From the UHGV virus genome UHGV-0217794: DNA of 27,591 nt; one strand, written 5' to 3'. Of this stretch, positions 4,924 through 11,257 are shown in pieces (position 1 is the first letter of the stretch; the number at the start of each line of letters is the position of its first letter). This DNA is from a virus. Position numbers and translations under genes: made by a program. Under the pieces are notes generated by a model, which did not search any database, was not told the origin of the DNA, and saw only the letters and a list, made by a program, of their open reading frames with translations.

Positions 4924-5298
4924 ATGCTCATAGATTTGGTTTTACCTTACCCGCCGACGGTGAACACTTACTGGCGACGCCGTGGCAGCACATATTTTAT
5001 CTCGGAGGAGGGAAAGCGTTATCGCCGGGCTGTGGCGCTTATTGTTCGCCAGCAGCGGCTGAAATTAAGCCTGTCCGGAAGGCTGGCGATAAAGGTGATT
5101 GCAGAGCCACCGGATAAGCGTCGTCGCGACCTGGACAATATCCTGAAAGCACCGCTGGATGCGCTGACGCATGCGGGAGTGTTAATGGACGATGAGCAGT
5201 TTGATGAAATCAATATCGTTCGTGGTCAGCCAGTATCTGGTGGACGTCTGGGGGTGAAGATTTACCCCATAATGCATGAAGAGCAGGTCAAAAAATGA
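4924..5298 (+). CDS. rusA: crossover junction endodeoxyribonuclease RusA (Holliday junction resolvase)
   Basis: 124-aa protein starting MLIDLVLPYPPTVNTYWRRRG with conserved acidic residues (RRDLDNILKAPLDAL); AAGAGGTGA RBS; typical position just upstream of Q. Confidence 0.88.
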   Translation: MLIDLVLPYPPTVNTYWRRRGSTYFISEEGKRYRRAVALIVRQQRLKLSLSGRLAIKVIAEPPDKRRRDLDNILKAPLDALTHAGVLMDDEQFDEINIVRGQPVSGGRLGVKIYPIMHEEQVKK

Positions 5299-6116
5299 AA
5301 CTGGAAGATTTACCGAAATACTACTCCCCAAAATCCCCTTGCCTGACCGATGCATCGGCCTCAACGTCAAAAGATGCGCTGAGTATCACTGATGTGATGG
5401 CCGCGCAGGGCATGACACAGAATCGGGCTGAGATGGGGTTTTCTGCGTTCCTGGGGAAAATGGGCATCAGTATGAATGACAGGGCGCGGGCAACAGAATT
5501 ACTGGCAGATTATGCACTCAGTCGGTGCGATCGTGTGGCGGCGTTGAGAAAACTTCCGGCAGAAATAAAACCGGTAGTGATGCGCATTATGGCTTCGTAC
5601 GCTTTTGAGGATTATGCCCGCAGCGCAGCGAGTAAAAAGCAGTGCCCTTGTTGCTATGGGGAAAAATTTATTGAAAGCGTAGTTTTTACAAACAAGGTCC
5701 AGTATCCGGATGGTAAGCCGCCGGTATGGGCAAAGTGTACGAAAGGTGTGTATCCGTCTTACTGGGAAGAATGGAAAAAAGTCAGGGAGGTGGTAAAAGT
5801 TGCCTGTCCGGAGTGTGGCGGAAAGGGTGAGGTTTCCACCGCCTGTAAGGATTGCCGTGGGCGTGGTGTCGCCATTCACCGTGAAGAGTCGGTAAAACGT
5901 GGTATGCCTGTTATCAGAGACTGCCAGCGTTGTGGTGGTCGTGGCTATGAAAGACTACCATCAACGGAGGCATTTAATGCTATATGCGAGGTGACAAACC
6001 AGATAACACGCGCGTCATGGGAAAAAACAGTTAAGAAATTCTATGATGCGCTGGTGACCCGGTTTGATATTGAAGAAGCATGGGCTGAGCGGCAGTTAAA
6101 AAAGGTAACTAGGTAA
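5295..6116 (+). CDS. late-gene antiterminator, Q family (non-lambda type, multiple CxxC zinc motifs)
   Basis: 273-aa protein with CPCC...C and CPECGGKG...CKDCRGRG...CQRCGGRG motifs; ATGA overlap with rusA; directly followed by a promoter-terminator unit and the late region. Confidence 0.8.
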   Translation: MKLEDLPKYYSPKSPCLTDASASTSKDALSITDVMAAQGMTQNRAEMGFSAFLGKMGISMNDRARATELLADYALSRCDRVAALRKLPAEIKPVVMRIMASYAFEDYARSAASKKQCPCCYGEKFIESVVFTNKVQYPDGKPPVWAKCTKGVYPSYWEEWKKVREVVKVACPECGGKGEVSTACKDCRGRGVAIHREESVKRGMPVIRDCQRCGGRGYERLPSTEAFNAICEVTNQITRASWEKTVKKFYDALVTRFDIEEAWAERQLKKVTR

Positions 6117-6120
6117 CAAG

Positions 6121-6160
6121 GTTGATTTTTCCGGAATCTGTGGTAAATTCATCATAATGA
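6121..6160 (+). promoter_or_regulatory. candidate late promoter (PR'-like) / Q-utilisation region: -35 TTGATT (6122-6127), -10 TAAATT (6144-6149)
   Basis: sigma70-like hexamers directly downstream of Q and about 50 nt upstream of an intrinsic terminator, the lambda PR'-qut-tR' layout; the -10 match is weak. Confidence 0.35.
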
Positions 6161-6259: not shown

Positions 6260-6335
6260 GGCCCTTTAGCTCAGTGGTGAGAGCGAGCGACTCATAATCG
6301 CCAGGTCGCTGGTTCAAATCCAGCAAGGGCCACCA
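6260..6335 (+). tRNA. ileZ: tRNA with CAU anticodon, most likely tRNA-Ile2 (lysidine-modified, reads AUA; ileX/ileZ-like); elongator tRNA-Met not excluded
   Basis: 76-nt cloverleaf: acceptor GGCCCTT/AAGGGCC, D-arm GCTCAGTGGTGAGAGC, anticodon loop CTCATAA, T-arm GCTGGTTCAAATCCAGC, 3' ACCA; close to my recollection of E. coli ileX. Confidence 0.85.
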
Positions 6336-6435
6336 TCACAAACCGCCATTAGCTTATCAGGAAGAGCAGACGACGCGATAACAGGGTTGTTGGTGCGGGG
6401 GCGGGTCCCCGATGGCGGTCCATTATCGGTATTCA

Positions 6436-6512
6436 GCGTTGTTAGCTCAGCCGGACAGAGCAATTGCCTTCTAAGCAATCGGTCACTAGTTCGAATCCAG
6501 TACAGCGCGCCA
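6436..6512 (+). tRNA. tRNA-Arg (anticodon UCU, reads AGA/AGG; argN/argO/argU-like)
   Basis: 77-nt cloverleaf: acceptor GCGTTGT/ACAGCGC, D-arm TAGCTCAGCCGGACAGAGC, anticodon loop with TCT, T-loop GTTCGAATCC, 3' GCCA; one mismatch in the T-stem. Confidence 0.8.
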
Positions 6513-6976: not shown

Positions 6977-7450
6977 ATACATATCTGGATTATCACCTGT
7001 TACGGTAAAAAGTTATTGCTTACTGTTTTTGTGAATGGCATTGCAGCAGCCGGATAATGTCAGTGCTGGCTGACGGTGTGCTGGTGGCGGGTGTGGTGGT
7101 TATTGCTTTCCCGTTGCTGAAAAAGAAAACGCCAGACTGTTAGCCGGGTATCAGTTAGCGGGAGAAATTTTTAAATACTTCACAATTCAGGCGGTTGACT
7201 GTTGTCTGGTTTGCGGGGAGTTTGTTAAAAGAAACTGGCATGGTGAATCCCCCTGTGCGGAGGGGCAATCAGCGAGTAGGTATATGGGATAATCGCGTAT
7301 TCAGGTGCTGGTACTGAATTCACCGGGAGGCACCCGGCACCATGCACTTCAATAGATTCTCTCCACATTATGGATATTCTTTCAGAATATCCCACGCAGA
7401 CTTTGTGTAAATGTTAACAAATGTGCGTTTTATTTGATCTGATTCGCTGT

Positions 7451-7509: not shown

Positions 7510-7938
7510 ATGGGTTTTCGTAGCGCATCAATTCTTACGTTGATTATTAGTGGGATTATTATCGGGTGCACTGATGCTGTATCGACAAATTATCATGACC
7601 GTACATCATATTACTCCGATAAAGCAATAGAGACACAGTATGTGAGTTCATCTGAACGTACTTCTGATGTTAGTGAGGATATCCGTCTGTATGCCCATCA
7701 AATCAAGAGCGCCATCGAAAAACAGTTCGGGGATGCGAGTAAGTATTCAGGAAAAGAGTGTACACTGAGAATGCATATGGCCCCGAATGGCCTTCTACTG
7801 GAGGTTAAAAGAGAAAGTGGAGACCTCGATTTATGTCGTGAAGCGATGAATGCGATAAAGAATGCTGATATACCTGCCCCCCCTTCGCCGGAAGTATATA
7901 AAGTATTTCAAAATGGGGTGCTGGATTTTAAACCCTGA
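7510..7938 (+). CDS. lipoprotein with TolA domain-III-like C-terminal domain (142 aa)
   Basis: Signal peptide with lipobox IIGC; C-terminal about 85 aa (YAHQIKSAIEKQFGDASKYSGKECTLRMHMAPNGLLLEVKRESGDLDLCREAMNAIKNADIPAPPSPEVYKVFQNGVLDFKP) aligns residue-by-residue with my recollection of the E. coli TolA C-terminus (YAGQIKSAIESKFYDASSYAGKTCTLRIKLAPDGMLLDIKPEGGDPALCQAALAAAKLAKIPKPPSQAVYEVFKNAPLDFKP). Confidence 0.8.
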   Translation: MGFRSASILTLIISGIIIGCTDAVSTNYHDRTSYYSDKAIETQYVSSSERTSDVSEDIRLYAHQIKSAIEKQFGDASKYSGKECTLRMHMAPNGLLLEVKRESGDLDLCREAMNAIKNADIPAPPSPEVYKVFQNGVLDFKP

Positions 7939-8088: not shown

Positions 8089-8484
8089 GTGGGATTAAAG
8101 AAAATCGTTATGTTGACTTTTTGGGTCGGTTTTGTTGCGGGATGCACACCTTTACACCCTTCAGATTGCCACAAAACTACTGCTACAGGTAGTTGCAGTT
8201 CAGGACGCTGGGATGATCAGGATGAATGGGGGGCGCAAGCGCGGGGAATCAGAGCTGCAATTAATGCCAAACTTGATGAGCCGCATAACTGGAAAGGGAA
8301 AAAATGCAGGTTGCATATGGAATTCTCTCAGGATGGCACGGCGTTAAAAATATCTACCAGTAACGGTGATAAAGCCTATTGCGAAGCGATAAAGTCCGCA
8401 GCTCATAAAGCCAAATTTCCGGCCTTCAACAATCCGGAAGTCTACAGAGATTTTCAGAAATCTGGCTTTGACATGCGAGGTTAG
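8089..8484 (+). CDS. second lipoprotein, divergent paralog of the TolA-III-like lipoprotein (131 aa, GTG start)
   Basis: Signal peptide with lipobox VAGC; C-terminus shares the K-C-L ... G ... GD ... C ... A ... A-FP ... VY ... F ... D pattern with the upstream lipoprotein; GAGGAG RBS 6 nt before GTG. Confidence 0.75.
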   Translation: MGLKKIVMLTFWVGFVAGCTPLHPSDCHKTTATGSCSSGRWDDQDEWGAQARGIRAAINAKLDEPHNWKGKKCRLHMEFSQDGTALKISTSNGDKAYCEAIKSAAHKAKFPAFNNPEVYRDFQKSGFDMRG

Positions 8485-8609: not shown

Positions 8610-8632
8610 AGCTCGCTACGGCGAGCTTTTTA
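8610..8632 (+). terminator. intrinsic terminator closing the lipoprotein moron (stem AGCTCGC/GCGAGCT, loop TACG, T-run)
   Basis: Perfect 7-bp hairpin followed by TTTTTAT, read directly. Confidence 0.6.
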
Positions 8633-8735: not shown

Positions 8736-8951
8736 ATGAAATCCATGGACAAAATTTCAACAGGCATTGCCTACGGCACCTCCGCAGGCAGTGCTGGCTA
8801 CTGGTTTTTACAGCTGCTCGATAAAGTCACGCCCTCACAGTGGGCAGCAATAGGTGTGCTGGGTAGCCTGGTATTTGGCCTGCTGACGTACCTGACAAAC
8901 CTTTATTTCAAGATTAAAGAAGACAGGCGTAAGGCTGAGAGAGGAGAGTAA
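8736..8951 (+). CDS. pinholin, phage 21 S21-like (dual-start MKSMDK motif)
   Basis: [26 protein letters not shown] ... [35 protein letters not shown] closely matches my recollection of S21 (71/68 forms); GGAGGTGAGG RBS. Confidence 0.9.
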
Positions 8952-8955
8952 TCCA

Positions 8956-9300
8956 ATGACTCAAGTATACGAACTGGTTGTGAAAGGAGTCCGTAATTTT
9001 GAGAATAAAGTTGCGGTAACTTTAGCCTTACAGGACAAAGAACGCTTTGACGGTGAGATTTTTGACCTTGATATCACTATGGATCGTGTTGAAGGTGCTG
9101 CACTGGAGTTTTATGAGGCAGCAGCCAGAAGGAGAATCAGACAGGTGTTCTTGGATGTTGCTGCCGGGTTATGTGAAGGGGATGAGCAGTCGCCGGAAAA
9201 GCGCCCCATAATTTTAGAGGCGCAGAATGTGTGGATAACCTACAAAGGAAAGCTACCAGGAAGAATTACTGGTTATCTGAAGACTCCGCCGGAATGTTAA
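8956..9300 (+). CDS. hypothetical protein between holin and endolysin (114 aa)
   Basis: ATG 5 nt after the holin stop with AGGAGAG RBS; unknown function; same slot as Qin ydfR but homology not verified. Confidence 0.55.
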   Translation: MTQVYELVVKGVRNFENKVAVTLALQDKERFDGEIFDLDITMDRVEGAALEFYEAAARRRIRQVFLDVAAGLCEGDEQSPEKRPIILEAQNVWITYKGKLPGRITGYLKTPPEC

Positions 9301-9538
9301 TTTTAACAGCATATTTCTCTTCCAGTAATGCCACCAGCCACTTGAAGGAATTTTGTTGTTCCTGGGACCATTTGGGGCTGTGTGATTCAAGCTGGAGCGA
9401 TGCCAGTGTTGGTTGCATTTGTTCCCTGGGAATTGACAATGCCAGATATGAAAATGCGACAGTAAGGGCATTAACATCATCCCGAAGCCTGGAAATGCAG
9501 TCGAGCAACTCCTGAAGAGAAATGGTGTTATTGTCCAT
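9266..9538 (-). CDS. hypothetical reverse-strand protein (90 aa) inside the lysis cassette
   Basis: ATG at 9536-9538 preceded by a strong AAGAGGA Shine-Dalgarno at optimal spacing; convergent with and overlapping the 3' end of the upstream gene by 35 nt. Confidence 0.45.
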   Translation of the reverse strand: MDNNTISLQELLDCISRLRDDVNALTVAFSYLALSIPREQMQPTLASLQLESHSPKWSQEQQNSFKWLVALLEEKYAVKINIPAESSDNQ

Positions 9539-9643
9539 AAATAATCCTCTTGATTGTATTTACCTGTTCTCCGCCTGATTCAACAGGTTGGGACAGATAA
9601 ACATATCCTGGGTTCAGAAATCGATAAATCCTGATAAATATCC

Positions 9644-10177: not shown

Positions 10178-10272
10178 GCAGAATATTTCTCTGAAAAATG
10201 ACGTTGGCCAACGCGAGTGGATAACACGATATTCGTCATAAATGAATTGAAGTAGTGAATAAGAGCAGAACC

Positions 10273-10300
10273 CCCGATTGCGCGAACAGTCGGGTTTTTT
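10273..10300 (+). terminator. intrinsic terminator inside the lysis cassette (stem CCCGATTG/CAGTCGGG, T6)
   Basis: 8-bp stem with one G-U pair followed by TTTTTTGTGTTT, read directly. Confidence 0.55.
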
Positions 10301-10336
10301 GTGTTTCCTGACTCCGGAAAAGCCAAAGGAGAAAGT

Positions 10337-10474
10337 GTGTTTGATTTTAGCAAACTGATTCGGGAGATTCGAACTATGGTTGAAAAATTATCCACCTGGA
10401 AATTCATTCTTTTCTGGCTGGTGTTTGCGATTATGGCCTCCGGTTATTTCATTGCTCAGATACGCTGGTGGTGA
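10337..10474 (+). CDS. putative small membrane protein (45 aa from GTG, or 32 aa from ATG 10376)
   Basis: AAGGAG RBS just upstream of GTG; one hydrophobic helix ([20 protein letters not shown]); stop 1 nt before the Rz start; below the ORF-track size cutoff. Confidence 0.35.
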
Positions 10475-10475
10475 A

Positions 10476-10940
10476 ATGAAACCGGTTCTGTATGCGGTGA
10501 TTGTTATTCTACTGGTGGTCAGTGGTGCGCTGTTGCTGGCAATAGCCCATTACCGCGATAATGCCATCATCTACAAAGAGCAGAGAGATGATGCGAAGAC
10601 AAAACTCAGCCAGGCGAACGCAGCCATTACTGACATGCAGCAGCGCCAGCGTGATGTTACTGCACTCGATGCAAAATACCTGAAGGAATTAGCTGATGCG
10701 AAAGCTGAAAATGATGCTCTTCGTGATGATATTGCCGCTGGTCGTCGTCGGTTGCACATCAGAGCAGTCTGTCAGAGCGTGCGTGAAGCCACCGCCGCCT
10801 CCGGCGTGGGTAATGCAGCCGCCCCCCGACTGGCAGACACCGCTGAACGGGATTATTTCACCCTCAGAGAGCGACTGATAATAATGCAAAAACAACTTGA
10901 AGGGGCACAGCTATACATTCGAGAGCAATGCCTCAGATAA
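10476..10940 (+). CDS. i-spanin Rz
   Basis: N-terminal TM segment then coiled-coil-rich periplasmic domain; contains the embedded +1-frame Rz1 lipoprotein gene; follows the endolysin. Confidence 0.85.
10696..10878 (+). CDS. o-spanin Rz1 (proline-rich outer-membrane lipoprotein embedded in Rz)
   Basis: Signal peptide with lipobox VVGC, PPPPP-rich mature region, fully nested in the Rz gene in the +1 frame. Confidence 0.85.
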
Positions 10941-11257
10941 AAACCGGCCAAGGATAATCCGCTGAAGATTCGCCGGGGCTAGAGAGAGCCAAAGCTTTAA
11001 TTGACACCATTACTCATAGCAAGGCAATGCATCGTTTTTATGAGGTCAATAGATGCCTGATTTATTTCTGTGCTCCGTATCGTCGCTGTATTCCTTCGTT
11101 AACCATGAGTGTAGTCCGACGGGGAGCACGAGTGTATGGGAATAATAAAAAAAGATACACACCTGGGTTTACCGCTTTTATGCTTCGCGGGTTTGCTCTT
11201 CATGCAGCTAGTCCGGTACAGAGGTGTATGAAACCGGACTGCTGATTTAATTAATTC

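Follow-up and report, generated by a model that had tools for sequence, protein, structure and literature searches.

A mobile cassette with a predicted membrane-peptide gene and possible sar-like antisense control between the lysis genes R and Rz

What fills the space between the lysozyme gene R and the spanin gene Rz in a phage-21-type lysis cassette, and what might it do there? The question is raised by UHGV virus genome UHGV-0217794, an E. coli prophage DNA of 27,591 nucleotides (the window, meaning the whole stretch that was analysed), in which these two genes are separated by a gap of 298 nt (10178-10475). In the prophages DLP12 and Qin of Escherichia coli K-12, R and Rz overlap and no gap exists; thus, the gap in the window is an insertion. 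A sequence-only reading of the window had described about 300 bp holding an intrinsic terminator at 10273-10300 and a short open reading frame (ORF) with an AAGGAG ribosome-binding site, which encodes a hydrophobic one-helix peptide and stops 1 nt before Rz. All of these features are present, at positions that are right within 1-2 nt. They are interpreted here as a mobile cassette comprising a sense terminator, a membrane-peptide gene and antisense control resembling that exerted by the sar RNA of phage P22, an interpretation that as a whole is given an even chance of being correct.

The first element of the cassette is a hairpin. Its stem-loop (10273-10294) contains eight base pairs, five of them G-C, and a 6-nt loop, and is followed by TTTTTTGTGT with six consecutive T. 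On the sense strand it therefore has the G+C-rich stem, the short loop and the immediately 3' U-tract of an intrinsic terminator. The hairpin and T-run were found by a terminator scan, although the simple terminator count was not above chance (two found vs 3.5 expected in shuffled sequences), and the hairpin is judged to be real because of its conservation rather than this count. In an alignment of nine divergent copies, in which the P22 sar terminator is counted as one of the nine, 91.5% of the stem cells are paired, with compensatory changes in four pairs. Covariation scores 0.256, compared with 0.116 in shuffles, only one in 500 of which reach it, and it beats all slid registers. The sense U-tract is 4-6 nt long across the copies, and the hairpin folds on either strand in all variants. 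Most homologues carry an A-run before the stem and a T-run after it, so that the minus strand reads CGGGGUUUUUACUUUU (U5), which points to a bidirectional terminator. The claim that Rz and Rz1 depend on Q-antiterminated read-through gains support from this arrangement, as a sense terminator lies between R and Rz and a Q gene is present in the window (Table 1). Given such a terminator, Rz/Rz1 should need a terminator-resistant (Q-modified) polymerase; the biology of Q antitermination is taken from established knowledge and from PMC7547250. Lambdoid late terminators (tR' and those downstream) likewise are intrinsic terminators on the late strand, below the Q gene and a PR'-like promoter. Unlike these, the cassette hairpin lies between two lysis genes that are contiguous elsewhere, and it is linked to the gene that follows it.

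Judged from its sequence, the small ORF is a real gene for a single-helix inner-membrane peptide. It matches phrog_6632 over positions 1-45 of 45 (E 2.9e-26) and is a full-length member of that family. Nonsynonymous and synonymous divergence (dN/dS) are 0.05/0.72 between the common type and the type found among baseplate genes, and about 0.25/1.6-2.0 against the Salmonella type, a ratio of approximately 0.07-0.16; purifying selection on the peptide reaches into the far 3' half of the ORF. AlphaFold models one helix over residues 4-44 with a pLDDT of 89. The family match, the dN/dS ratio and the helix model together argue that the ORF is coding. The Kyte-Doolittle hydropathy maximum is 2.03 (residues 24-42), consistent with the one transmembrane segment that had been proposed. 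The N-terminal 22 residues are charged and amphipathic, and by the positive-inside rule the peptide likely has its N-terminus in the cytoplasm and, past the single membrane-spanning helix, a short RWW tail on the outside. The leader can fold into a small hairpin in which the Shine-Dalgarno (SD) sequence is partly occluded, and three homologue leader types each retain a short stem by the SD. The junction of the ORF stop, one base and the Rz ATG (TGA-N-ATG) is kept in 92 of the 94 loci that bear the ORF. The peptide frame is conserved in related cassettes, a check that the sequence-only reading had proposed.

Relatives of the peptide are few. Only 27 clusters were found in 5.8 billion proteins, from E. 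coli, E. albertii, Salmonella and Shigella, and a tblastn genome scan added one copy in Citrobacter braakii. No relatives were found in Pfam, NCBIfam, PADLOC or PDB. The 45-residue peptide is annotated as hypothetical by PGAP in some genomes and also in some phage records. Literature searches by peptide sequence, by accession and for small lysis-cassette proteins returned nothing relevant; they brought up no paper on the peptide, on the terminator or on antisense RNA in a lambdoid R-Rz gap. Roles as a lysis accessory, as a toxin or in exclusion are conceivable for the peptide. A strictly Rz-specific role is weakened because the cassette is also found in baseplate operons.

Two further observations concern the ends of this ORF. 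Met14 is invariant (ATG at 10376-10378) and has GGGAG 9 nt upstream, so that a second start is possible. Compared with holin/antiholin dual starts, the two starts would differ by 13 residues, not 2-3, and the same nucleotides form the predicted antisense promoter described below. A plus-strand promoter candidate within the ORF, TTGATT-17-GAGATT (score 8.28, with a start near Met14), was rejected because the Salmonella and Citrobacter copies lack it. At the other end, the window peptide (10460-10474) and an unrelated peptide of EDL933 (locus L004, 2821-2835) both terminate in IRWW-stop, and the codons differ (ATA CGC vs ATC CGT). The use of different codons suggests that selection acts either directly on the C-terminal residues or on the ribosome-binding site of Rz, GGTGGTGA.

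The gap sequence is widespread. At a coverage of at least 80%, it was found in 1299 of 5426 complete E. coli genomes, about a quarter; most copies are approximately 84% identical to the window, and identical ones are rare. It is also found in H-19B and in many Stx1 and Stx2 phages, and it therefore sits in an operon whose timing governs the release of Shiga toxin. The gap is composed of 85 nt linked to R, then hairpin, leader and ORF, which always occur together, and then Rz. The cassette of a Salmonella P22-like prophage is preceded by a different holin and by a lysozyme with 31% identity to R. In Citrobacter braakii it directly follows an unrelated endolysin. In 41 E. coli genomes, in phage Rac-SA53 and in Salmonella phage SEN34, it is located between baseplate genes. 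Strains UTI89, O104:H4 and E2348/69 and Salmonella phage SPN3UB are also among the carriers of the cassette. By this distribution of sequences, the hairpin, leader and 45-codon ORF are a self-contained mobile cassette inserted in line in late operons. Like a moron, the cassette is extra DNA between genes that are adjacent in related phages; it differs from a moron in having its terminator upstream of the gene, in yielding no sense promoter to the scans and in an ORF that leads directly into the next gene.

The third feature of the cassette is a predicted promoter on the minus strand of the ORF itself (TGCTAAAAT; Table 1). It occupies codons 3-12 and aims at the hairpin, which is 50-55 nt away. 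Scored with an approximate sigma-70 matrix on both strands of the whole window, it ranks fourth among 55,110 positions. The same matrix recovers the P22 promoters Pant (16.4), Pmnt (12.6) and the true Psar (9.2), the last of which is also TG-extended. The antisense promoter is present in all 29 distinct variants from 174 loci, in the form TGCTAATAT in Salmonella and Citrobacter. Over codons 2-13, dS is 0-0.4, compared with 1.0 to saturated over codons 14-45 in the same pairs, and dN over the promoter codons is not lowered in the most divergent pairs. Low dS without lowered dN argues against recent recombination and for an overlapping element at the nucleotide level. In EDL933, in which the 5' end of the ORF is replaced, another strong minus-strand promoter (TGGACA-18-TATACT, in the top 0.02%) is located 77 nt from the hairpin.

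From the geometry of this promoter and the terminator, an antisense RNA of about 73 nt is predicted. It would be complementary to the start codon, SD and leader of the ORF, and it folds as a 5' stem-loop plus the terminator hairpin in all variants. The likelier candidate for a small RNA of the gap is therefore an antisense one, predicted to lie on the minus strand, to start in the ORF and to end at the hairpin.

A known RNA of comparable layout is sar of phage P22, which pairs at the ribosome-binding site of ant and thereby blocks translation of that gene (PMC12197685, PMC2629481). In the P22 RefSeq genome, arc is followed by the minus-strand sar terminator, a short leader and the ant ATG, which the 5' end of sar adjoins; Psar is located within the initial 35 nt of ant. 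The cassette has the same order and nearly the same spacing: an upstream gene, a minus-strand terminator, a leader of about 35-40 nt with an SD, and the start codon. In the first approximately 35 nt of the downstream ORF, Psar in P22 and the predicted promoter in the cassette are minus-strand sites with a TG-extended -10, and the cassette promoter would place the 5' end of its RNA against the start codon, as in P22. The P22 sar RNA is 68-70 nt long and the RNA predicted for the cassette about 73 nt, and both consist of a 5' stem-loop and a terminator hairpin. A Rho-independent terminator that ends an antisense RNA between two cistrons, as in sar, is matched here by the minus-strand fold found in all variants.

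The similarity extends to sequence models. A covariance model (R1) was built from 10 of the predicted antisense RNAs and used to search 147 kb; it matches P22 sar over its full length with 23.6 bits and an E-value of 3.5e-4, of a kind that the tool calls rough, and the next match outside the family is P22 tR' (E 0.16). For the hairpin types of the window, Salmonella and SEN34, identity with the sar terminator is approximately 80%, loop included (z 4.2-4.8). P22 was missed by a BLAST comparison of the cassette with phages and was reached only by the covariance model and by local alignment of the hairpin. There are also clear differences. The target in the cassette is the gene of a 45-residue membrane peptide before Rz or a baseplate gene, not the antirepressor gene ant. 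The cassette is located in the lysis cassette or in a baseplate operon, whereas P22 sar is in immI. The cassette hairpin also has a strong U-tract in the sense direction; in P22, it is the antisense strand for which the hairpin is optimised. By analogy, the cassette would work like sar, and the two may share ancestry.

The observed basis of this interpretation consists of the anatomy of the gap, its conservation, the purifying selection on the peptide, the covariation of the hairpin, the linkage of the cassette parts, the geometry shared with sar and the similarity to it at the level of the model. Activity of the promoter, an end of the RNA at the hairpin, repression of translation and the role of the peptide are inferred. 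By established Q biology, ordinary polymerase would stop after R at the hairpin, and the peptide and Rz/Rz1 would be made only from Q-modified late transcription. The peptide would be translated just before Rz and would probably be coupled to it via the 1-nt junction. The extended -10 promoter inside the ORF would fire toward the hairpin to give the RNA of about 73 nt, which would pair with the late mRNA at the initiation region of the ORF, by analogy with sar on ant. As a result of pairing, the peptide would be translated less, or later, and coupling would extend this effect to Rz. The antisense promoter may itself be dampened by the late transcription that runs toward it.

A more detailed version can be proposed, tentatively, as it is rather unlikely to hold in all its parts. 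The cassette would be a regulatory device of temperate enterobacterial phages, lambdoid and other, in which a sar-like antisense RNA, produced constitutively from inside its target gene, sets a threshold or delay for the peptide and the spanin in late development; in lysogens this RNA could provide RNA-based exclusion by pairing with late mRNA of a related phage that enters the cell; and the peptide would be a new inner-membrane lysis accessory or toxin that lysis and baseplate operons share. STnc6030 in BTP1 is an RNA-based exclusion factor and serves as a comparison. If the antisense RNA is true, it would be the first antisense control that was found described inside a lambdoid lysis cassette and would show the P22 sar design in use a second time, independently, and an antisense-controlled cassette could add a layer of control to phage lysis.

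Several findings weigh against antisense control. The sigma-70 matrix was home-made and is approximate. Promoter-like sequences are common in AT-rich horizontally acquired genes and are often non-functional. Constraints on translation initiation, or a start at Met14 inside the ORF, could also explain the low dS in the first codons. The window has a poor minus-strand U-tract (GGGGGUUCUGCUC), although this tail is no worse than that of the authentic P22 sar terminator. Where Rz follows in the E. coli copies, the hairpin is more stable on the sense strand, since a U-G pair there is a C-A mismatch in the antisense strand, and the antisense terminator role of the hairpin may be secondary. The common E. 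coli hairpin type has no sequence similarity to sar. The Rfam model RF00262 scores 14.1 bits in the window and 18.7 in the Salmonella copy against a gathering score of 43, and it gives no match in the common E. coli copy; other terminator-containing Rfam families score as well. As RF00262 remains far below its threshold, the cassette is not a member of that family. At gathering thresholds, Rfam finds nothing in the gap, and its matches in the window are STnc100 and two tRNAs elsewhere.

These points bear on the simplest alternative, a plain in-line insertion of a sense terminator and a small late gene, in which the minus-strand promoter-like site is a by-product of AT-rich codons (D-F-S-K-L) or at most gives rise to non-functional pervasive antisense transcription. 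It agrees with the canonical sense hairpin and U-tract, with the greater stability of that strand in the E. coli copies followed by Rz, with the weak minus-strand U-tract of the window and with the lack of a specific sar match in Rfam; also, no published small RNA was found to map to the R-Rz gap. This alternative does not readily account for a promoter that ranks so high and is invariant among lineages whose synonymous sites are otherwise saturated, nor for a non-homologous promoter at the same place in EDL933. A mere terminator at the end of the upstream gene would not be expected to be linked to the ORF in three unrelated gene contexts, as the hairpin is, and the custom covariance model matches P22 sar over its full length. 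A plain insertion is quite possible, though on the unlikely side. If it is correct and the antisense RNA false, an ordinary read-through terminator and a small hypothetical late gene remain.

The second alternative is a module like those of the type I toxin-antitoxin systems (hok/sok, ibs/sib, zor/orz), with the peptide as membrane toxin and the antisense RNA as the antitoxin that silences leak-through in lysogens. Common to the cassette and these systems are a small, hydrophobic peptide with one helix and a short cis-antisense RNA, in the cassette a predicted one, that covers the ribosome-binding site of the peptide gene. At 45 residues with one transmembrane helix and a charged end, the peptide falls within the size of such toxins (fewer than 60 residues, one helix). 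The terminator would serve as a double lock, and the R-Rz gaps of other prophages carry arrays of similar small hydrophobic ORFs. Unlike type I toxins, the cassette peptide lacks a dedicated promoter: the stretch from hairpin to ORF yielded no sense promoter, which leaves the 'toxin' without its own transcript. The ORF is always in line with the next late gene, and the peptide is unrelated to known toxins, with no known toxin family or PADLOC model matched. A toxin-antitoxin module is considered improbable.

The third alternative builds on the sequence-only reading, in which the roughly 95 nt upstream of the terminator could be a small RNA. This RNA would lie on the plus strand between the R stop and the hairpin and end at the terminator, as an independent transcript or as a product of the 3' untranslated region of R. 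The terminator is at a fitting distance for such an RNA. The 85-nt flank that makes up most of this stretch shows 72-78% identity among cassettes whose R genes differ by dS 0.7-0.9, and is thus better conserved than the synonymous sites of R. It also contains the near-invariant blocks CTGAAAAATG, GGATAACA and AGTGAATAA (window 10190-10262), which were seen across E. coli and one Salmonella copy. Promoter, ORF and structure each fail to explain these blocks. The best plus-strand promoter in the flank (-10 at 10228) scores 7.6, far below the minus-strand site and below the true Psar, and a stricter consensus promoter scan found none on the plus strand of the flank. The fold of a 128-nt stretch was no better than that of shuffles (z -0.65). 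Outside the hairpin there is little covariation, with only a weak helix that has two compensatory cells and several broken pairs, and in the consensus fold of the flank alignment the covariation term is unfavourable. A conserved mini-ORF in the flank was also rejected, as frames and stops vary among the copies.

The distribution of the flank likewise does not favour a plus-strand small RNA. In Sakai Sp9, where the sequence was checked, the flank is followed by ant, without the hairpin. Sp6 and Sp15 have the same layout of R, gap and ant, and the covariance model matches none of the three (the flank sequence was read in Sp9 only); the three inspected Sakai prophages hold ant in place of the cassette. 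In Citrobacter, the cassette comes directly after its different endolysin and the flank is absent, and the baseplate copies are likewise without it. Flank without hairpin and hairpin without flank indicate that the two occur independently, the flank being part of the R module. The Hfq-CRAC table of Tree et al. was compared with Sakai coordinates for EcOnc33, 49, 52, 11 and 12, none of which lies inside the R-Rz gap. No Table S2 EcOnc entry falls in the inspected Sakai R-Rz regions, in a screen that left out sites within 100 bp of a coding region, and there is no Rfam match. The proposal of a small RNA upstream of the terminator, lacking a good promoter, a significant fold or notable covariation, is therefore not upheld and is regarded as very improbable.

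Equally improbable is an ORF that has no protein function and only brings ribosomes to the Rz start after the terminator insertion split R from Rz, for which the nearly universal spacing of 1 nt between its stop and the Rz ATG and the overlap of Rz with R in cassettes without the insertion can be cited, but which is at odds with the strong purifying selection on the amino acids, far 3' half included, with the retention of the ORF where no Rz follows, and with the IRWW end reached through different codons in the unrelated EDL933 peptide family.

Short terminator-ended RNAs are already known from lambdoid late regions in prophages of pathogenic E. coli (AgvB/AsxR, PasA-D, StxS/STnc100 and HnrS), some of them in convergent pairs. 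AgvB, AsxR and PasA/C are encoded upstream of the holin, StxS, STnc100 and PasD at PR', and HnrS downstream of Rz. These RNAs act in trans through Hfq, whereas the RNA proposed here would be a cis-antisense RNA. AgvB, AsxR, Pas, StxS and HnrS were rejected as candidates for the RNA of the gap, as all of them map elsewhere.

The R-Rz junction is also a hot spot for small single-helix ORFs of other families. PHROGs 4493, 4906, 3246 and 1115, all of 'unknown function', are alternative ORFs of this type at the position of the PHROG 6632 peptide, and examples from EDL933, E2348/69 and Sakai Sp9 are included in Table 1. The peptide is thus one of at least four small single-helix ORF families that replace one another there, and the junction is a defined place to seek new lysis or membrane-targeting functions. 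No study of PHROG 6632 or these sibling PHROGs was found in the literature.

Table 1. Features of the R-Rz gap, of the surrounding late region and of three other R-Rz junctions (window positions, except where a locus label is given)
Feature	Position	Strand	Remarks
Hairpin and T-run	10273-10304	both	terminator scan, covariation, folding
Leader	10305-10336	+	AAGGAG SD at 10326-10331, 5 nt before GTG at 10337
Small ORF, 45 codons	10337-10474	+	GTG start; TGA 10472-10474, one A, then Rz ATG
Predicted antisense promoter	10344-10372	-	-35 TCGAAT 10372-10367, 17-nt spacer, extended -10 TGC-TAAAAT 10352-10344
Predicted antisense RNA, ~73 nt	10262-10338	-	5' end ~10336-10338; ends past hairpin
85-nt flank 3' of R	10178-10262	+	part of R module, not of terminator cassette
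Q gene	5295-6116
S21-type pinholin	8736-8951		PF04971
YdfR/DUF1327 gene	8956-9300
90-residue ORF	9266-9538	-	within lysis cassette
R lysozyme, 177 residues	9644-10177	+	PF00959, E 2.7e-23; phrog_7
Rz i-spanin, 154 residues	10476-10940	+	PF03245, E 9e-49; ATG at 10476
Rz1 o-spanin	10696-10878		inside Rz; PF06085, E 3.4e-18
EDL933 R-Rz junction	L004 2502-2839		one 37-residue ORF
E2348/69 R-Rz junction	L005 2001-2645		four small ORFs in tandem
Sakai Sp9 R-Rz junction	L099 1488-2480		ant and 48-residue ORF

The R protein of the window is a phage-21-type signal-anchor-release (SAR) lysozyme, with a Gly/Ala-rich hydrophobic N-terminal segment that was read from the translation, and it is annotated as rrrQ/lysozyme in identical genomes. 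The top sigma-70-like site in the window, TTGATT-16-TGn-TAAATT with its -10 at 6144, is located just past Q (region 6110-6150) and is probably PR'. Downstream of it are two tRNA genes (6260-6509) and, 1 kb on, a match to STnc100 (7209-7399, 108 bits). Two adjacent ORFs between the Q/PR' region and the holin (7510-7938 and 8089-8484) carry TolA C-terminal/TonB-like domains (PF06519) and are moron-like cargo. Just upstream of the holin is a terminator-like hairpin (8610-8627, AGCTCGCTACGGCGAGCT then TTTTT) that matched no Rfam family. It occupies the place of the convergent small RNAs of the AgvB/AsxR/Pas type in prophages of enterohaemorrhagic and enteropathogenic E. coli.

The 90-residue ORF on the minus strand overlaps the 3' end of the ydfR-like gene. 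It matches phrog_2411 over its full length (E 3.4e-53) and is labelled hypothetical by PGAP. Just upstream of it is a good minus-strand promoter-like sequence, TTGAAT-19-TACAAT (score 10.98; the -10 begins at 9558), and the ORF looks like a reverse-oriented moron between holin and endolysin. Past Rz, the minus strand at 11064-11254 is approximately 75% similar to the Sakai Sp9 intergenic region that contains HnrS (EcOnc12), an Hfq-binding small RNA that represses Hha (PMC13502914). Rfam has no family for HnrS; on the basis of this similarity, the window may carry an HnrS-like small RNA at that position.

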